In this document: positions 3,534 through 59,330 of the stretch, one piece after another
Layout of the letters: every line of letters starts with the position of its first letter
How positions within the stretch are numbered: the first letter of the stretch is position 1
IMG/VR virus record: IMGVR_UViG_3300021399_000115
Span: 32,001-96,000 of that record
DNA length: 64,000 bases
Strand: one strand, 5' to 3'
From: a virus
Lineage: Duplodnaviria > Caudoviricetes
Position numbers and translations under genes: made by a program
Notes under the pieces: generated by a model
Database searches by the model: none
What the model saw: only the letters and a program-made list of their open reading frames with translations
What the model was told of the DNA's origin: nothing

Positions 3534-3782
3534 TTATCTCCTTGCATTCGGTTCATAAAACTCAAAAGAATTTGTTTTACCATTATACCTAATAAATCCA
3601 TCCATACTCTCACGAAGACGTTCTCGGTTCTTTATGCAACACTGCATGAGGTCATCCATTAGCTTTGGGGTAAGTCGTTTTTTGTGGTGGGCTAAATCCG
3701 GCTGGATGTATTTGAGCACGTCCTGAACGGCAAGCAGTCCTTGTGTAAAACCGCGATTGTATTCTCCGGATAATCGTTCCAT
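3534..3782 (-). CDS. hypothetical protein
   Basis: ORF with AAGGAG RBS. Confidence 0.6.
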   Translation of the reverse strand: MERLSGEYNRGFTQGLLAVQDVLKYIQPDLAHHKKRLTPKLMDDLMQCCIKNRERLRESMDGFIRYNGKTNSFEFYEPNARR

Positions 3783-3794
3783 GGCAAAATCTCC

Positions 3795-3953
3795 TTATAC
3801 AATTTTGAAGTAATAATTAAACTGTTGGTTAGTTAGTAACACTGTGCAGTAATCACTTACATAGATTACATAATCTTCGCCGGCTTTGGAGTATTGGTAT
3901 AATTCTCCGCTAGTAAATAGTTCAGTTGGTGGATTGATGCATTCTGCATACAT
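3795..3953 (-). CDS. small hypothetical protein (52 aa)
   Basis: Manual: AAGGAGG RBS, MYAECINPP...YFKIV; fills the gap between neighbours. Confidence 0.55.
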   Translation of the reverse strand: MYAECINPPTELFTSGELYQYSKAGEDYVIYVSDYCTVLLTNQQFNYYFKIV

Positions 3954-3993
3954 GAGGTGTCCTCCTTGGGAAAATAATAATAAAATTCAATTT

Positions 3994-30221: not shown

Positions 30222-30648
30222 CTAAATTTCTCAAACAAGGCCGTGTTCCACGAAATTAATTTGCGCATCGTGCGGGGTTGATTAAGCCAAAAACCCGTCT
30301 TATGGCACCTTGCTTAAGATTGCATGTGGCGAGAAAATACCCTCGCCACAAAACCTCACTTTAAGTTATTTCATTTCTGTTTCTGTTAAGTAATATTGCA
30401 ATGCTCGTCTTTCCGAGCCGTCGGGGTTTTGTAACGAAAGTTACGGGATAAAAAGCTGTTTGATCAATCACATAGTTACAAGTACGTACTTCCCAGTCTT
30501 TCCCAGGTGTCACCAGTTTTTGACAGCTATGTCCTTCGCATATTATTCTGTCACGTGCATCAGACATGTGTGGAATATGTCATTTTGCCTTTCTGCTTTC
30601 GCTTATCTTATCCACAATCAGATAAGCCGGAATCCTGGACAACCATGA

Positions 30649-30721
30649 TATCCGCAGGCCGATTCGAACAACCACTTCCCGTCGGCGGACGGGACGTACT
30701 CACCAATTATACGATACGGAT
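30649..30721 (-). tRNA. tRNA-like RNA with 8-nt anticodon loop (TCCGCCGA)
   Basis: ATCCGTA/TGCGGAT acceptor, GTAT/GTAC D stem, TCCCG/CGGGA, GGTTG-TTCGAAT-CGGCC. Confidence 0.65.
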
Positions 30722-30786
30722 AACCAATTACACATGTGCTTTCACTATTTCGGACAGCTTGTACTTCACCGACCTACTTTAGCTAG

Positions 30787-30879
30787 TGGGAACGGCAAGA
30801 TTTGAACTTGCATCTCTTTTGCGCTAAAGTGTTTTACCATAAGGATTTATTTTTTGGCACCTTATTAAACTACGTTCCC
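30787..30879 (-). ncRNA. tRNA-like RNA with hairpin inserted in D loop and shortened anticodon arm
   Basis: GGGAACG/CGTTCCC, GCAAG-TTCAAAT-CTTGC; D loop contains ATAAGG...CCTTAT; CTTT-AGCGCA-AAAG. Confidence 0.65.
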
Positions 30880-30883
30880 TTAT

Positions 30884-31250
30884 TATTGCGGCTATATCAG
30901 CCTCGTACAATTCGCTGGGTCAAATAAGCGATACCCATAAACTTTGATCGAGGATTTTATCGAAAATTAATAAATGAATTCCCTAAGCCCTACATAAAAA
31001 GAATTCTAAATTCTAAATCGCCACATCACCAGTGGCATCCACTAAACAATAATCAATGATAACTGAGCGCTTAAGCCAATTTACATTTGATTTCTCATCC
31101 CATCAGCATTGCAATATTGATGCTGCTCATATGAGAAAACACTGTATAATATCATATCGCTTCATCTCGATATTATGATGTTTTAAATGGAGCCGGGATA
31201 ACCCTCCCGGCGAGGGGCTTAAGTTTGCGAATTTCGATATAGTCGCAATA
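30884..31250 (-). ncRNA. candidate ~365-nt structured ncRNA downstream of helical-protein gene 2
   Basis: terminal stem TATTGCGACTATATC/GATATAGCCGCAATA (14 of 15 pairs), nested AATTCGC/GCGAATT, several inner hairpins. Confidence 0.65.
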
Positions 31251-31263
31251 GATTATTTAATAA

Positions 31264-31897
31264 TTAAAAATCAATTTCTATTGTAGTCAGAGCATTCGAC
31301 ACATTCAGCTTCGTATCAACCTCTGCTTCAAACGCGTCAATTCTGGACTCCAACTCAGCAATTTTCTTCTCAATATCGAGCGGATCGACAATGGCAAATT
31401 CCCTTTGCTTTCTATACGGCGCTGTAAAGGCTTCTATGTCAACTTTGTCAATTTTTTGCTTATTGTCTCCGGAAAGCTGTGTTTCGATCAATCTGTCGCA
31501 CTGAGCGTCCACTTTTGCGTTCTCACGAGCAACGGTGGAAACAGCCGAATCAAACTGCTCTTTCATCGCATAGAGGAATCTTTTGTCATACTCAATCGAA
31601 CTCTTCTTTTCTATAGCAGCTGCGACAGTCATCGTTACTCCGCCGATTTCTACCTTAGTAATTGCGTTAGAATTGACAATTGCACTCTTGAGAGCATCTC
31701 GGTTATCAATCATAGCCGTGATAGAATCAAACGAGGACTGTGCATCATTCTCGTAAGCTTTCCTTTTTCTTGTGACCGATTAAATCCGAATTCTTCTTGG
31801 CTGCTCCGACAAATTCGGCACGACCGATTGCCTTATAAATTTTGTCGTCATAGAGTTTCAGTTCTTTCAATGCTTCTGTTACTGTAATTTTTCTCAT
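31264..31897 (-). pseudogene. alpha-helical DIP1984/DUF6847-like protein, copy 2, with a 1-nt frameshift near 31760-31770
   Basis: AAGGAG RBS, MRKITVTEALKELK... stops after KKKESLRE; the +1 frame continues AYENDAQSSFDSITAMIDNRDALKSAI...MTVAAAI...SNALTTIEIDF. Confidence 0.7.
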
Positions 31898-31943
31898 AGT
31901 TAATTCTCCTTTGTTTAATAAATGAATTTACATGATTCCTTAG

Positions 31944-32030
31944 CTGAAGCGGTACGATTCGAACATACATCTTCTCGATTGGCGCCGAGACGTTTTACCA
32001 TAATTGCCGGCCAACTTAAACTACACTCCA
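31944..32030 (-). ncRNA. tRNA-like RNA with D-loop hairpin insertion and 8-nt anticodon loop (GCGCCAAT)
   Basis: TGGAGTG/CGCTTCA, GTATG-TTCGAAT-CGTAC, TCTCG/CGAGA; D loop AGTTG-GCCGG-CAATT. Confidence 0.65.
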
Positions 32031-32157
32031 ATATTGCCGGCGGCAGTCTTGGCCTTCGACTGCACTTTAATGCTCCTTAACAAACCGGCAACGAATAAAA
32101 AATCCAGACTTGGTGCAAGCACCACTTCTGATAAAAAACTCTATATGAGTTTTTTGT

Positions 32158-32240
32158 TTATGTGGGTAAGGATTTGCACCTTACATGACATCCTCATCTG
32201 AACTGTCTTTCCATGCGTTTACCTTTTCCGCCACCACATA
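32158..32240 (-). ncRNA. tRNA-like RNA (Leu-type D arm, no recognisable anticodon arm)
   Basis: TATGTGG/CCACATA, GTGGCGGAAAAGGTAAACGC, GTAAGG-TGCAAAT-CCTTAC. Confidence 0.55.
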
Positions 32241-32262
32241 ATGTAGATTTGATTTTCTACAA

Positions 32263-32336
32263 TGGAACATCCAGGGCTCGAACCTGGGACCGACCGGTTA
32301 TGAGCCGGTGGCTCTGACCAACTGAGCTAATGTTCC
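32263..32336 (-). tRNA. tRNA-Ile2/Met (CAT)
   Basis: Canonical cloverleaf; ACCGG-CTCATAA-CCGGT resembles Firmicute lysidine tRNA-Ile2. Confidence 0.92.
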
Positions 32337-32663
32337 AAACAGATTCAATCAAAAACTCCGGATTTACAATTACATAACGCCGAGACACTACAAGTTGGTC
32401 TGCGTTGCCACACCACATCCACTCCTCATTGCTCATCAAGGATTTTTTGATTGAATACAGTCCGTACAGATTCGCCTTATTATTTCAACCCCAGCAACAG
32501 GGTCACCATAATGCACTACAGTGTAAAAGCCAATCTGCCGATAATTTAGTTGTTGCCGTTTAAGTAATTATTAGTCGGTGCATCGAGAAGGTATCGGCTG
32601 AATAGATATATATCATTTCAACCTACTCACCGGTTTATTTATCCGGCTGCCGTTTGCCTTCCG

Positions 32664-33061
32664 TGCGGATAGTGGGAATCGAACCCACACGATGAAACCA
32701 TCAGCGGATTTTCATACTACTCTATGTTTCCATAGCCATGATGAATCATGTTGTAGTCTGGACCATGTCTTTACCTTGTCAGATTGGTATTCTGATTTAG
32801 GTAGATGGTATATGGTCTCTACACATTTATAAACAAAGGCTGTTCCTCAAACTCCATTTAACTACAGCGCTTCGATAATTTCCATTCAAAGGAATATTTC
32901 TAATTCCGGTTTTCGTAGCACCTTTGTTTAATTTAGCTCGGCGTTGTCTTAGCCTTTCGCCGAATTAGCCATCTCCACTTATATCGTTTCCAATATAAGG
33001 CTCTACTTTAATGTCTGCTAAGAAGAAAGTCCGCTTCGTCTGCCTATTCCGACATATCCGC
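32664..33061 (-). tRNA. tRNA-Leu(TAA), split by a group I intron (exons 33027-33061 and 32664-32712)
   Basis: Spliced product GCGGATATGTCGGAATAGGCAGACGAAGCGGACTT|AAAATCCGC...GTGGGTTCGATTCCCACTATCCGCA. Confidence 0.9.
32713..33026 (-). mobile_element. group I intron (314 nt, no ORF) in the tRNA-Leu anticodon
   Basis: Exon ends in U, intron ends in G; P7 halves TGTAGAGACCATA and AAGACATGGTCC. Confidence 0.88.
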
Positions 33062-33161
33062 AAGTTTGCCGCCTATCACGGTTATGTGGATCGCCCACAT
33101 AAGTTGATTTTCACTATGGTAAATAATTTGGTTTCCTTTGAGTGGCAACTTATAACCGTAC

Positions 33162-33363
33162 TTCCGTTGTCGAAGAAGTTTTCTCATCCAGTAGAACCAG
33201 ATTTTACTGTAATAATGTTAATCCCTAAAGAACTTGAATACTTTAACACCGTGGACTAATACATATAACAAATAATTCAAATTAATAACACATATAGAAC
33301 ATAACCATGTACAACCACAGATTTATTGTTAAAATATCATTTGAATATTACCGGATGACGGAA
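33162..33363 (-). ncRNA. candidate ~200-nt structured ncRNA downstream of helical-protein gene 1
   Basis: nested stems TTCCG/CGGAA and TCATCCGGTA/TACTGGATGA; shares TTAGGGA..CATT.ATTA..TAAAATC with 30884-31250. Confidence 0.55.
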
Positions 33364-33375
33364 AATTCGTTTCAT

Positions 33376-33882
33376 TTAATAACTAATTTCGAAAGTTACT
33401 GTATTATTCACCAGATCAAGTGTAGTCTGGAGATGTTTTAACTCAGCGTCGACTTCTTCATATGCCCTATCAGCGGCTTCAATGTCGAAGTTAGCATAGA
33501 TATAGTCAATTACATTTCCCGTAATTTGACCTCTGCGTTTCTCTTGCATACTTCTCATACGGGCGAATTTTTGTTTTCGTTCGGTCAACATACCGAGTTT
33601 AATCAACACCTGGTCAATCGTTAGTCCGGTATCTCCGACAATCCTAGAACTGTTGAATAAATTAATCGCATGTTTGATAGCAATAATCTGGTTGTCTATA
33701 ATTTCAATACAAGATTTTGTATCCTCGAAATTATAATCCGGGCGAACATCATCAAGCTTTTCGCCGACAGCCGCATGGAATTCCATTCCGTCTATTTCCT
33801 TATTGCGGAAATTACTTTTTTCTTCGTACAGTTTTCGAAGTATATTGTTTGCTTCTTTGGACGTTACCGTTACTGTTGTCAT
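33376..33882 (-). CDS. alpha-helical DIP1984/DUF6847-like protein, copy 1
   Basis: TSKEA..L, IKHAINLFN, LTIDQVL, LDLVNNTVTFEISY parallel the motifs of copy 2. Confidence 0.75.
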   Translation of the reverse strand: MTTVTVTSKEANNILRKLYEEKSNFRNKEIDGMEFHAAVGEKLDDVRPDYNFEDTKSCIEIIDNQIIAIKHAINLFNSSRIVGDTGLTIDQVLIKLGMLTERKQKFARMRSMQEKRRGQITGNVIDYIYANFDIEAADRAYEEVDAELKHLQTTLDLVNNTVTFEISY

Positions 33883-34017
33883 TGTAGTTCTCCTTTAATA
33901 ACTCGTATAACTCTTTCTGCGGAGTAATCGAAATAATAAACATCACCGCTGCTCCGCCGGCTACCATAACTCCTATGCAAATCCCAAATATTAACACCAC
34001 CAAATACATCGTTTGCC

Positions 34018-40282: not shown

Positions 40283-41083
40283 TCAAATGTGTCGAGTGTT
40301 CTCTTCGCTTTCCACTAGGGCAACGAACTCATTCCAAAGCGGATCCGCTTTCGGATTGTAGCTAGAACCATGCTCAAGAAACAGCACATGCTTCAGATCC
40401 TGACAAGCTCGGCAGCTGTCGCAATGCTGTTCGCCGTCAACCGCACATCTGCAAATATGCGTTTCAATTCCGGCGGATCTCAATGCCTTGTACATTTCCA
40501 TCACATGATCGCAATGACCATAATTCAGACCAAACCCAGGCACCAGACTCTTGACAATGTTGAATCCCTCAACATCATCAAATGCGTTCTCGGCAACGGG
40601 GTTCTTGGTGTATGCCCACATACGAGTGGACGGGCAGTTAGCCTTAATACGTTTCCACATAGCAATGTATTCCTCGGAGAAGAAATCTCCGGTGATGTGA
40701 ACACGAACAAAGTCAAGCGGTTTTCCGTATTTACCCCAGTTAATCTGAGCGGTGATAGCATTCTCAAGCCAGTCCATATGCTGACGAGCAGCTACTGTTC
40801 TCCAGGCATTTGCGTTGTAAACACCGCTCATTGCATATCTACCGGAGCAACCGTAGCAATGTTCACACTGAAGAGGGCAAGTTCCTTTCATAGTGCAAGA
40901 TTTGCCGTTGAATTCAACGTGCCATTCTTTTGTACCGGCCAGTGTGCTCCATCCATAGCAATGAGTCTTGGATCCCCATGTGAGCGGAAGGGATACCCAC
41001 TGTCCCCACGGTGCAAGGATTTTGTTGCCTTTAGTTCTGTACTCGATACCATAGCTTCCAAAGAATTCTTTCTTTCTCATCAT
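40283..41083 (-). CDS. Gp88-like radical-SAM-related protein
   Basis: TCPLQCEHCY, VRVHITGDFFS..Y, WAYTK, C-terminal Cys cluster. Confidence 0.75.
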   Translation of the reverse strand: MMRKKEFFGSYGIEYRTKGNKILAPWGQWVSLPLTWGSKTHCYGWSTLAGTKEWHVEFNGKSCTMKGTCPLQCEHCYGCSGRYAMSGVYNANAWRTVAARQHMDWLENAITAQINWGKYGKPLDFVRVHITGDFFSEEYIAMWKRIKANCPSTRMWAYTKNPVAENAFDDVEGFNIVKSLVPGFGLNYGHCDHVMEMYKALRSAGIETHICRCAVDGEQHCDSCRACQDLKHVLFLEHGSSYNPKADPLWNEFVALVESEENTRHI

Positions 41084-41137
41084 TATACGCACACTCCTTA
41101 ATAATTAATTGATAATGGATTTTTGTTTTCTCTATAT

Positions 41138-41168
41138 AAAAAGGAACCAGCCGAAGCCAGTTCCTTTT
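41138..41168. terminator. intrinsic terminator ending the early array
   Basis: AAAAAGGAAC...GTTCCTTTT hairpin with A/T tails. Confidence 0.6.
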
Positions 41169-41172
41169 GTTG

Positions 41173-41460
41173 TTAGCTATTGATTATGCTACGTACAGCA
41201 CGGGGGTTGTTCTCATTGTATGGAATTACCTTAATCACATTATGTTCAAGATTCCATTTGGATATTGTCACGGGGTACGGAGCAGATGTTTTCCATCCGC
41301 GAGGATTCATATGGGGAAGTACCTCACATAAATACCAGGTAGAATATTCTGCCTTGACAACAATCGGCAGATAGATATCTTTGTAGGTATCCGTCCCCAT
41401 GAAGTAGTCAAGTTTCGCTCTTGCTTTCTGATTAACTCTCAGTGTTTTTAATAATTTCAT
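41173..41460 (-). CDS. hypothetical protein
   Basis: GAGGAGG RBS. Confidence 0.6.
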   Translation of the reverse strand: MKLLKTLRVNQKARAKLDYFMGTDTYKDIYLPIVVKAEYSTWYLCEVLPHMNPRGWKTSAPYPVTISKWNLEHNVIKVIPYNENNPRAVRSIINS

Positions 41461-41479
41461 TTATCTTCCTCCTCAGTAA

Positions 41480-41719
41480 TTATTTTCTATTCCTCAAGTA
41501 AATGTTTGTGTACTTCTTATATAATGTCTTCGCTTTTACCTTGTTGCCCATAGGATAAGACCGGTGAGTTTCCTTATAGTCTACATAATCCGATGTTTCA
41601 TAAACATGAACCACATATACCGTTGCTCCGTAGTGTTTGCCAACCATCAATTCACACACCATTTTCCCGTCTGTAGTTGCGCAAGATTCTATTGTCTTGG
41701 TCATTGTATCACGCTCCAT
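41480..41719 (-). CDS. hypothetical protein
   Basis: ORF in array. Confidence 0.55.
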   Translation of the reverse strand: MERDTMTKTIESCATTDGKMVCELMVGKHYGATVYVVHVYETSDYVDYKETHRSYPMGNKVKAKTLYKKYTNIYLRNRK

Positions 41720-43148: not shown

Positions 43149-43175
43149 ACTATCATCTCCTATCAAACGTGTTTT

Positions 43176-43586
43176 TTATTTAATTTCATTTCTAATTATG
43201 TTCAATATTTCTTTTCTATATTTTTCATAATACATATCCAGATAATATTCCATTTCTTCATCATTTTTAACCAGCTCAGTCAGCTTGTACATTTTGCCCT
43301 GGTTTATAAAATGACATGAACTTACATACCATTCATTATCATCAATATTGAATCCATAACAAAATTCCATGAATATATCTTTTTTTGGTATTTTGAAATA
43401 ATCATTTACAGATACACAACCACCCATATCAAGTTCCGCAAGAACATCAATTTTATTGAGCAATTCATATTTCGTCTTGATGTTGAATAACTCAATACCA
43501 AGTGATTCTAAATGTGAATCACAATGATGATATCCATATTTAACCATCCCATCTTTAATAATTCCCACATAAGATCTTGTTGACAT
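43176..43586 (-). CDS. hypothetical protein
   Basis: MSTRS..G...Y.H.D.H. Confidence 0.65.
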   Translation of the reverse strand: MSTRSYVGIIKDGMVKYGYHHCDSHLESLGIELFNIKTKYELLNKIDVLAELDMGGCVSVNDYFKIPKKDIFMEFCYGFNIDDNEWYVSSCHFINQGKMYKLTELVKNDEEMEYYLDMYYEKYRKEILNIIRNEIK

Positions 43587-57392: not shown

Positions 57393-57496
57393 GATATTTT
57401 CCTCCTACTGGTTATTTGCAGAATCAGCCGGGACTATTCCCGTTGCCCGCCACCCGCGACGCGGACGCTTCTGCTATGAGTGGCATGAGGGGAGGC

Positions 57497-58156: not shown

Positions 58157-59330
58157 GGTGTGTTCCTCCTTATATTTTTTCTTGGCAATCTCCGGGCGAG
58201 TCCCGGCACTTATTCAATTTCATCAGCTTTAAAGCTGGACACAATGTCTACCGGTCGGTAGGCACTCTGCCCAACCTTAAAATGGCCATGAATAAGGGTG
58301 GTATCCCACTAGCGACTCCACACCGCCCGAGGACAGTGTTTCTCAGTCTCCCACCTATTCTGTGCATATTCATAGCCCAGTCGGGTGGTTACGATTCCTC
58401 CGGGACTCCTTCCGGGTTTTCTCCTCTATCTGTGCGTCCACTTCAAAGCTACGCAGTTTTCACCTCCTCTCTATGGTGCGTAGCTTCCCAGTTTCTTCTT
58501 ACCGCCCGTAACGCTCGGTTGAACGTGTGAGCCATTATTGAGCATTGCCCACTTGTAGGCGGCGAGGGTATAGCTTGCCTTCAATATGATGACATAGTGA
58601 TCGCTCTATGGATAACCTATATCATGTTTCCGTCCGGAGTGCGGGATACGGACGGGGACCCACTGCCGGGTTACCGTTCCGACGCCGAGTTTCCCCGTCG
58701 CCTTTAGTAACCATTCTGTCCCGGTTCGCCTTGTATAACGCACATAGGCTAACTGCGATGCTGGCAAGGCATAATATGAGCCAAAAACCTCCTCTCATGA
58801 AACCATTAACAGTAACTTTGTATCACTAGTGGTTAGACTTGCGATACCAAACCGGCTTTTATACCGTAACCACTTGGGCTTGTTCCCTTGCGGTATGGTC
58901 ATATAATACACCAAAAAAGACCTAGGAAAATATTTTTTAATTATAGTTAAAATCTATTAATACCGGGGGTATTTCAGCAGAAAATGTAACAAATTTGTTC
59001 CCTGGCACCCTAGCAAGTTCACCCACAGACTACCTAAAAAATACGATAATCACCATATTCCAACCATTTATCGTCCATATTATCGAAATTTATTACATAC
59101 AATCGAATTCTATGATTTAACCAATACTCATTTTTCAAATACAATATTTGCTCTCTGCAATCCAATTATCCCAATGGTTTTAAGTAATAAAACAGCATTC
59201 CCAATAGCTACGATTATCCGCCTTAATTACATCCAAAATTTAGCCACTCCCCCAACCATTACAGCAAATAATATACTGATCTAATATTTCACCCCTACCA
59301 CCCCACAAAGGGCGCCAATACCATCCGTGG

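Follow-up and report, generated by a model that had tools for sequence, protein, structure and literature searches.

What is encoded in the long stretches, free of open reading frames (ORFs), that follow each of two small genes in a phage genome, and are they partners of the genes they follow? The genes lie in a 64,000-nucleotide (nt) stretch of DNA, here called the window, which comprises bases 32001 to 96000 of the 132,319-base IMG/VR virus record IMGVR_UViG_3300021399_000115, a record judged to be 68% complete. An earlier note on this DNA had described the genes (here gene A and gene B) as paralogs, each followed by a related structured noncoding RNA (ncRNA; RNA2 after gene A and RNA1 after gene B), and had proposed a duplicated and diverged module of a helical protein and its cognate RNA. 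The analysis presented here shows that two distinct and conserved modules, each consisting of a gene and an RNA, are present in the window, which is from a large tRNA-rich phage. RNA1 and RNA2 represent new classes of structured RNA that are widespread in phages, and each class is coupled to a gene for a protein with the DIP1984 fold. Both modules and all features discussed are on the minus strand, and each RNA and each gene is present in a single copy within the 132-kb record. The same arrangement was found in a viral contig of 202 kb (locus L002), a close relative that is 91 to 93% identical to the window over the two RNA regions.

Linkage and distribution of RNA1 and RNA2

Using a single-sequence nhmmer search, the RNA1 stretch was found in other viral loci, always just past the stop codon of gene B and on the same strand. 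Four search iterations yielded 80 RNA1 matches, 52 of them full length, which covered 78 of 80 gene-B loci. The gene-B proteins in RNA1 loci are 36 to 53% identical to the query, with the exception of that in locus L011, which is the close relative itself, and most of these loci have an ORF-free gap of approximately 300 to 1,000 nt 3' of gene B. When viral contigs were scanned for a motif of the RNA1 3' domain without regard to the gene, 117 pattern matches were obtained, 39 of which were true copies by profile. Gene B was directly upstream in 38 of the 39; the remaining copy has only 157 upstream bases, too few to judge.

RNA1 was also identified in named phages. Salmonella phage bastian and Bacillus phage BCP8-2 (Herelleviridae) have an unannotated gap of 375 or 504 nt after gene B, and RNA1 profile matches were obtained within both gaps (E values of 1.3e-8 in bastian and 1.4e-16 in BCP8-2). 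The closing stem, pseudoknot, and heptads could be recognized by eye in both copies, as could an intrinsic terminator 3' of RNA1 in BCP8-2. The RNA1 copy of T5-like phages is 90 to 100% identical in 440 of 441 matching records. Among the 40 matches listed, the annotation under this copy consisted of neighboring genes only, and RNA1 was unannotated in the four records inspected, the T5 reference included. In the phage T5 genome (NC_005859) it lies at approximately 43,150 to 43,490 on the minus strand, between T5.085 and an annotated promoter, with no feature assigned to it. Elsewhere in the same record (locus L483), positions 40848 to 41566 carry a 719-nt feature annotated as "RNAX, stable RNA with unknown functions" beside tRNA-Arg. 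Using tblastn, the gene-B protein was found in 747 phage records, with at least 80% query coverage in 717 of them. Sorted by the first word of the organism name, 286 of the records were from Salmonella and 140 from Escherichia phages; Pseudomonas, Vibrio, Bacillus, Klebsiella, Erwinia, Lactococcus, and Aeromonas phages also carry the gene, as do Clostridium and Clostridioides phages among the matches listed.

Of 59 distinct RNA1 loci, 8 have a same-strand tRNA gene no more than 30 nt past the RNA, and 20 have one no more than 150 nt past it; a tRNA was found near RNA2 in 2 of 52 loci. These counts are from ARAGORN only, which misses odd tRNAs.

Profile searches for RNA2 converged more slowly than those for RNA1. 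Matches were found in 79 of 89 viral and metagenome gene-A loci, and several of the ten negative loci have little downstream DNA. Together with the gene-B loci above, this bears out the proposal that each gene has its own conserved structured RNA directly downstream on the same strand, even among relatives that have diverged widely. One scan of bacterial genome assemblies returned 265 gene-A relatives. RNA2 was present in 69 of 80 bacterial-genome loci, always on the strand of the gene and mostly in Lachnospiraceae, Oscillospiraceae, Ruminococcus, and other Clostridia, and thus carries the theme into Clostridia genome assemblies, mostly of gut or rumen origin. The pair of gene A and RNA2 is common in such assemblies (loci L403 to L482), which include the isolates Ruminococcus albus 8 and Oribacterium sp. 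strain F0262, and in one of them (L444) the module directly follows four tRNA genes. A motif scan of viral contigs for RNA2 gave mostly chance matches, with gene A upstream in 6 of 113.

RNA1 is a pseudoknotted RNA with a 7-nt repeat

Across the family, RNA1 is approximately 300 to 400 nt long and has a long closing stem (P1) and up to three pseudoknots, as helix P2 crosses stem X and helix PK2 crosses both (Table 1). The window copy alone folds with a predicted free energy of -108.1 kcal/mol (z = -3.5), which was matched by none of 100 shuffles. From an alignment of 37 copies that are pairwise less than 90% identical (A6), RNAalifold predicted 23 pairs, 20 with compensatory changes, and a scan of column pairs added PK2, in which the 5' junction pairs over a long range with the loop of a 3' hairpin. 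In total, 43 pairs in seven helices were 89.0% paired, compared with 35.1 to 42.4% in controls with the 3' partners slid by 1 to 3 columns. Double-change cells, in which both sides of a pair differ, numbered 350 versus 66 to 113 in the slid controls, and none of 500 shuffles reached any of the observed measures. Two helices had been noticed before: the 14-of-15 terminal stem is present, with one A.C mismatch and one G.U pair, as is the pairing of AATTCGC with GCGAATT (31233-31227 with 30915-30909), and both show compensatory changes in relatives. A conserved CGAAAAY junction precedes the 5' strand of P2.

Between the 5' and 3' domains lies a variable region followed by approximately seven repeats, in which a U and, two bases on, an A are invariant or nearly so at an exact spacing of 7 nt (family consensus of the region, TAAAAGtTCAAAgtTcAaagtTtAAagtTtAAagtTtAaattTcAAAgTTCTT). 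The conservation spectrum of RNA1 peaks at a period of 7.0 with a power of 4.62 and does not exceed 0.5 outside periods 6.5 to 7.5. The rough 7-nt periodicity ascribed to both RNAs by the earlier note therefore holds for the RNA1 family, and no clear period-7 peak was seen for RNA2; a short motif at fixed spacing, as in HutP- and TRAP-type systems, was established for RNA1 only. RNA1 was judged not to be coding: between 30884 and 31250, the sole ORF that reaches 40 amino acids (aa) is 40 aa long and on the opposite strand, and relatives of RNA1 differ by many insertions and deletions while keeping base pairs rather than codons.

Table 1. Positions in the window of the two genes, the two RNAs with their structural elements, and the tRNA-like gene next to RNA1
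Feature	Position	Strand	Description
Gene A	33376-33882	-	Intact 168-aa ORF; helical protein, DIP1984/DUF6847-like fold
RNA2	33144-33363	-	Structured RNA of ~220 nt downstream of gene A
RNA2 5' motif UUCCG	33359-33363	-	Nearly invariant (alignment A9); 17/20 sequences
RNA2 closing stem S2	33349-33358 with 33184-33193	-	All 9 pairs with changes on both sides
RNA2 CUGUGG/CCACGG	33315-33320 with 33249-33254	-	Window sequence
RNA2 interior	33255-33314	-	U/G-rich, GUUAU-type repeats; enclosed in the window by CUGUGG/CCACGG
RNA2 junction GAAAACUU	33176-33183	-	Follows S2; RAAAAAC(U/C)U-type motif in 20/20 sequences
RNA2 3' hairpin S0	33144-33171	-	Loop GAAGUWCGGUUAYAG; 87.9% paired; 7/7 pairs with changes on both sides
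Gene B	31264-31897	-	phrog_1491 family, DIP1984-like fold; frameshifted in the window
RNA1	30885-31249	-	Pseudoknotted RNA of ~365 nt downstream of gene B
RNA1 P1 closing stem	31235-31249 with 30885-30899	-	95.5% paired; changes on both sides in 11/12 pairs
RNA1 P2 (AAUUCGC)	31227-31233 with 30909-30915	-	77.2% paired; changes on both sides in 5/7 pairs
RNA1 PK2	31217-31221 with H3 loop 30925-30929	-	98.4% paired; changes on both sides in 5/5 pairs
RNA1 H-type pseudoknot	31192-31216	-	Stems PKa and PKb; all 10 pairs with changes on both sides
RNA1 PKa	31213-31216/31202-31205	-	75% paired
RNA1 PKb	31206-31210/31193-31197	-	85.6% paired
RNA1 heptad-repeat region	30995-31072	-	UYA per 7 nt; interrupted in the window by a 22-nt hairpin insert
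RNA1 most conserved block UUCGAUAAAAUCC	30949-30965	-	Continues into the 5' strand of stem X
RNA1 stem X	30949-30953 with 30901-30905	-	98.9% paired; up to 23/37 sequences changed on both sides
RNA1 hairpin H3	30917-30936	-	83.9% paired; loop makes PK2
tRNA-like gene	30787-30879	-	Rfam tRNA, 45.8 bits; 26-nt D-loop insert; 5 nt downstream of RNA1

RNA2 is a smaller RNA with a different architecture

RNA2 copies are approximately 200 nt long. From 5' to 3', the family has the UUCCG motif, the 5' strand of the closing stem S2, an interior with GUUCAAUGUU and GUUAU repeats, the 3' strand of S2, the RAAAAACUU junction, a variable hairpin, and the 3' hairpin S0 with its conserved 14- to 15-nt loop. 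The family consensus of the interior is GTTCAagGTT...GTTATTcTtTTTGTTATtgGTTAT...TCAgTGTT. In a MAFFT alignment (A8), on which RNAalifold predicted only 5 pairs, the 5' ends of RNA2 were out of place; the sequences were therefore re-cut at UUCCG, giving an alignment of 21 sequences (A9). On A9, 16 pairs were 84.2% paired, compared with 36.7 to 46.6% in slid controls, and double-change cells numbered 83 versus 16 to 28. None of 500 shuffles reached the observed paired fraction, double-change cells, pair types, or covariation score, and the count of pairs with changes on both sides was reached by 2 of 500. Covariation downstream of the two genes was thus found for both RNAs, at paired fractions (89.0% for RNA1 and 84.2% for RNA2) well above those of the slid controls. 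The single-sequence fold of RNA2 is no better than that of shuffles (z = -1.0; 27 of 200 as good), so its structure is shown by the comparative data only.

The sequence of S2 differs between lineages; the uninterrupted helix averages 8.6 bp when each strand is paired with its own partner (at least 6 bp in 20 of 20 sequences), compared with 5.3 bp with the strands of other sequences. The 10-bp stem described in the earlier note is present in the window (33358-33349 with 33193-33184) and covaries across the family. The accompanying TTCCG and CGGAA are also present there as a possible pairing; an exact CGGAA occurs in 6 of the 21 A9 sequences, and GGAA or GGAG, which allow four of the five pairs, in 10. 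By a strict rule, S0 has a U run behind it in 26 of 117 distinct loci, compared with 3.1% of random 22-mers; the window has none. In part of the RNA2 family, though not in the window, S0 may thus also serve as a terminator.

RNA1 and RNA2 match no known family and are not detectably homologous

Searches of each RNA profile against the loci of the other gave no cross matches at E values of up to 10. The best local alignment between RNA1 and RNA2 scores 21, with a mean of 20.5 for shuffles and 214 of 500 shuffles scoring as high. The TTAGGGA..TAAAATC motif that the earlier note had seen near both 3' ends is accordingly at chance level, and by eye it is not kept in other RNA2 copies. The two RNAs have in common their position 12 to 17 nt after the stop codon, a closing helix next to GAAAAC, and short U/A-rich repeats in the interior, UUCAA among them. 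Circular permutation was considered, as GAAAAC follows a strand of the closing stem in both, and was rejected because, by inspection, the other elements do not come in a matching order. The idea of a duplicated and diverged module finds support in its protein half, as the proteins are remotely related (see below), which makes an old duplication of a protein-plus-RNA module a fair reading; between the RNAs no homology was detected.

With Rfam 15, no match at the gathering score was obtained over RNA1 or RNA2 in the window. At E values of up to 10, nothing credible was found over 30300 to 34000, the best matches inside RNA1 scoring 16.7 to 17.8 bits (E values of 3.7 to 9.5). In eight diverse loci, there was likewise no Rfam match over the RNA proper; the one match inside an RNA1 copy, that of locus L053, is to an embedded tRNA. 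This tRNA (3713-3786; 53.5 bits) sits in the variable region of the copy, which spans 3622 to 3970. All other Rfam matches in these eight loci (E values of up to 0.5) lie outside the RNAs and are to tRNA, tRNA-Sec, fragments of transfer-messenger RNA (tmRNA), or a plastid untranslated region. Searches with ARAGORN and Rfam also gave no matches to tmRNA, RNase P, group I introns, or known ribozymes, and these candidates were rejected. ROOL and GOLLD (10.1101/2024.12.08.627333) are large ornate RNAs of phages and prophages with Rfam families. RNA1 and RNA2 resemble them as large structured ncRNAs of unknown function in phage genomes, but do not match their covariance models, are smaller, and are strictly coupled to one protein gene family.

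A search of the full-text literature, with the older T5 stable-RNA literature outside its scope, found no description of RNA1, RNA2, or a function of the proteins. In the available text of two large-scale RNA-discovery papers neither RNA is described, leaving aside the supplementary list of approximately 10,000 viral RNA candidates in PMC10690425, which might include RNA1 or RNA2 unnamed. The earlier note knew of no described RNA partner; in line with this, neither region matches an Rfam 15 family and no paper on such a partner was found.

Gene A and gene B encode remote relatives with a DIP1984-like fold

Of the two genes as first described, gene A is an intact ORF, but gene B is not a single ORF in the window. 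Relative to the gene in L002, which is one intact ORF of 210 aa, a single extra nucleotide splits it into two pieces, 31745-31897 and 31264-31713. The extra base sits in an A/G-rich run (31713-31760, minus strand), and the shift could be a real frameshift or pseudogene, an assembly error, or a programmed shift. The larger piece matches the PHROG family phrog_1491 at profile positions 65 to 210 of 211 (E = 4.7e-47) and the smaller at positions 2 to 49 (E = 1.7e-7), so that together they match the family from one end of the profile to the other. In many records phrog_1491 is labeled "tail fiber protein," for which no support was found here; the model of protein B is a helical bundle.

No significant similarity between proteins A and B was found with BLASTP (E = 0.085). 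When family profiles built from 13 gene-A sequences (A4) and 27 gene-B sequences (A3) were compared using hhalign, 111 N-terminal columns were aligned with a probability of 78.9% (E = 1.6e-5). AlphaFold2 models of both proteins are confident, with predicted local distance difference test (pLDDT) scores of 93.4 for protein A and 91.0 for protein B. For both, the best and sole confident fold match in the PDB is 3kdq, a protein from Corynebacterium diphtheriae of unknown function. Protein A matches chain 3kdq_C with an E value of 3e-4, a probability of 1.00, template modeling (TM) scores of 0.58/0.62, and a root mean square deviation of 5.4; the match of protein B is weaker (E = 0.014, probability 1.00, TM 0.43/0.58), and both are assigned the same fold as 3kdq. 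At the sequence level, the profiles match 3kdq weakly (E = 0.029 for A3 and 0.14 for A4). The two genes are thus paralogs at the level of profile and fold though not by BLASTP, and their products are remote relatives that share the DIP1984 (PDB 3kdq) fold.

The earlier note had described the proteins as DIP1984/DUF6847-like, which is right at the level of fold or superfamily but does not extend to formal membership: window protein A matches the NCBIfam model DIP1984_fam (NF038048) weakly, with 16.1 bits (E = 0.0094) against a cutoff of 70. The Pfam family DUF6847 was matched by 8 of the 13 gene-A family members (best E = 2.1e-6) and by 1 of the 27 gene-B family members (E = 0.042). Gene A of the window has no match to PF20935 at E values of up to 1, nor did a PF20935 search over the whole genome return one, and by the curated cutoffs of DIP1984 (NF038048) and DUF6847 (PF20935) the window proteins are not members of either family. 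Protein B further differs from DIP1984/DUF6847 proteins in having an extra helical hairpin (210 aa versus approximately 150). A protein atlas search returned "hypothetical protein" clusters only, and in a viral structure library the gene-A model resembles uncharacterized proteins of large phages. For the DIP1984/DUF6847 family itself no known function was found, and the sole paper found to name DIP1984 is a genomic-surveillance study.

When four copies of protein B were predicted together, the self-association score was 0.61, compared with 0.00 for the best of three controls. Among proteins solved as same-chain pairs, 20 of 30 reached this level, as did 1 of the 23 that had been solved as single chains, a calibration that is only rough (own alignment, and four copies folded here versus two in the calibration). 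At least 85% of contacts are the same between runs, and the pLDDT of the partner is at least 81. As 3kdq was solved with four chains, this result may partly mirror likeness to a solved structure.

A putative ribonucleoprotein and its alternatives

Each RNA is most likely the binding partner of the protein encoded upstream of it, a reading drawn from genomic sequence: two remotely related proteins each keep a different class of RNA, and specific pairing is the simplest explanation. Since the RNAs begin 12 to 17 nt past the stop codon and a promoter scan found 8 promoter-like sites, none of which stands out, versus 11.3 expected from shuffles, we infer that each RNA is co-transcribed with its gene. 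The closing stem, a tRNA downstream (through RNase P), or a terminator would then determine its ends; a tRNA may trim the 3' side in some phages and a terminator may define it in others, while the closing stem would protect the ends. The tRNA-like RNA that the earlier note had placed 5 nt past RNA1 was recovered as an Rfam tRNA (Table 1) and could set the 3' end of RNA1 via RNase P. Each RNA would act as the specific partner of its own protein, with several dimeric protein copies reading evenly spaced short motifs held out by a folded scaffold, a logic like that of HutP or TRAP on spaced triplets. By this analogy, the chances are about even that the phased repeats bind several copies of the dimeric cognate protein. 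The resulting ribonucleoprotein (RNP) might exert feedback on how the module and the genes downstream are expressed or act in trans during infection, and the setting in a tRNA gene array points to tRNA or translation biology, or to counter-defense. Put in full, and only tentatively, the modules may represent an unrecognized kind of phage RNP in two classes that acts in trans, in which dimers with the DIP1984 fold read phased motifs (UYA per 7 nt in RNA1; GUUAU/GUUCAA in RNA2) on a pseudoknot-locked scaffold RNA encoded behind the protein gene. In large tRNA-carrying phages (T5-like, Herelleviridae, Clostridia), such an RNP might act on tRNA or translation or against host defense.

Several points weigh against the RNP reading. 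Both protein families are acidic (median isoelectric point of 5.44 and net charge of -3.5 for one family; 5.19 and -6.1 for the other), which is unusual for RNA coating and counts against the polymerization along the RNA that the earlier note had offered as an example. The sole interface reported for protein B joins two of the four copies through one symmetric set of contacts, and its model contains no ring or filament matching 7 to 8 repeats. The conservation profile of RNA2 has no significant 7-nt period. RNA1 and RNA2 are not detectably homologous and differ in architecture, so that a duplicated module is to be read from the proteins alone. Finally, the protein-RNA link is drawn entirely from genomic evidence, and tight linkage would also be expected if the RNA were a mere cis element of the mRNA.

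The last of these points leads to the view that the RNAs are cis-acting parts of the mRNA that are not released, either a 3' stabilizer or a protein-controlled terminator or antiterminator like the terminator associated with hutP. It would account for RNAs that begin 12 to 17 nt past the stop codon without a clear promoter of their own, for a GC-rich S0 followed by a U run in 26 of 117 loci (versus 3.1% of random 22-mers), and for the frequency of tRNAs among the downstream genes. However, neither RNA in the window has a U run on its 3' side, RNA1 is a closed pseudoknotted domain for which no alternative terminator/antiterminator pairing was found, the conserved 14- to 15-nt S0 loop does not resemble that of a usual terminator, and a neighboring tRNA is not a fixed feature (found in 20 of 59 RNA1 loci and 2 of 52 RNA2 loci); we regard a cis role as improbable. 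The near-exceptionless co-occurrence of gene and RNA over large distances (38/39, 78/80, and 79/89) bears instead on the suggestion that the RNAs act alone, as ornate ROOL- or GOLLD-like RNAs or as decoys or sponges of host factors, with the gene linked through transcription or a pathway only. This co-occurrence, the pairing of two paralogous proteins each with a distinct RNA class, and the lack of an Rfam match to ROOL, GOLLD, or another family make RNAs that act alone somewhat unlikely, although RNA1 is large and multiply pseudoknotted beyond the needs of a simple protein-binding site, the loop-junction pairing of PK2 could be intermolecular (a difference to which alignment counts are blind), and the proteins are acidic. 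ROOL and GOLLD are often near tRNA genes, which the tRNA-gene adjacency seen here resembles.

It is highly improbable that the stretches function as DNA (iterons, an origin, or a packaging signal) or as a self-splicing intron or ribozyme. Tandem 7-nt repeats can serve as protein-binding DNA iterons, and intron-like and ribozyme features are also present in this region of the window. Nevertheless, G.U pairs are among the compensatory changes, such as UG:15 in P1; these can form on the sense strand only, which points to RNA, and the orientation is fixed, with every match on the strand of the gene. For an intron or ribozyme, there is no Rfam match (group I, group II, or ribozyme) at E values of up to 10 over 30300 to 34000, and the element follows a stop codon and has no flanking exons.

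Comparison with known RNA-protein systems

Returning to the RNP reading, its closest counterparts are HutP and TRAP. HutP of Bacillus subtilis reads UAG triplets with 4-nt spacers on the hut terminator RNA, which amounts to a 7-nt period, and both HutP and TRAP are rings. In those systems the gene of the RNA-binding protein is located just upstream of the RNA target; the likeness here is in the order of gene and RNA, with binding inferred. Further likenesses are a triplet at fixed spacing, which in RNA1 is UYA per 7 nt, and the hairpin plus U run of part of the RNA2 loci. The protein folds are unrelated, however, those described here being helical and DIP1984-like; the interface predicted for protein B joins two copies rather than forming a ring; and RNA1 is a closed pseudoknotted domain of 300 to 400 nt rather than a leader with alternative hairpins.

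A second comparison is with CsrB and RsmZ, RNAs that have many copies of a short motif and bind several small dimeric CsrA proteins. RNA with many copies of a short motif for a small dimeric protein would be shared with the modules described here, where such binding is presumed. Motif, spacing, and fold are different, Csr RNAs are not encoded directly after csrA, and the repeats of RNA1 are strictly phased inside a pseudoknotted frame. As for the proteins, the comparison with DIP1984/DUF6847 comes down to 3kdq as the best fold match for both, weak profile matches, and the DUF6847 matches of 8 of 13 gene-A relatives, set against window proteins that fall under the curated cutoffs.

RNA1 is thus a strongly covarying RNA with multiple pseudoknots that is present in hundreds of sequenced phages and unannotated in the records inspected. 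It is unusual for a folded RNA to carry a strictly phased 7-nt repeat, and such a repeat implies a partner of defined stoichiometry. Pairing with an RNA is the first testable hypothesis for the DIP1984/DUF6847 fold family (PDB 3kdq) and, if the RNP reading is true, would provide the first functional handle on the whole superfamily. As phage T5, which carries the module, and Escherichia coli K-12 are both standard in the laboratory, the module is directly testable.

tRNA-like genes and other features near the modules

The region from 30600 to 33400 is mostly noncoding and includes a tRNA-Met gene (32263-32336) and several odd tRNA-like genes. In addition to the tRNA-like gene next to RNA1, a second one is present at 31944 to 32030 on the minus strand (Rfam tRNA, 34.9 bits; 20-nt D-loop insert). 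ARAGORN called neither of the two, both of which have 8-nt anticodon loops with GCGC inside. At 30647 to 30722 (minus strand), ARAGORN identified a tRNA with a 2-base "anticodon," the counterpart of which in L002 is a normal tRNA-Gly(TCC). By eye, a further tRNA at approximately 32650 to 33065 (minus strand) appears to be split by approximately 330 nt, with a 5' half near 33060 that resembles an acceptor strand plus D arm and with the 3' strand of the anticodon stem, a long variable arm, the T arm, and the 3' acceptor strand near 32650 to 32710. This stretch gave no Rfam intron match and is 95.6% identical in L002. The relative carries an inserted 193-aa ORF between RNA2 and the next noncoding element (4751-5332 of L002), an ORF that the window lacks. 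Away from the modules, the minus strand of the window has two Rfam matches above their gathering scores, at 58250-58386 and 57414-57484: a 23S-like piece corresponding to positions 2115 to 2256 of bacterial 23S rRNA (65.8 bits) and a hepatitis delta virus-like ribozyme of the F. prausnitzii type (46.2 bits).

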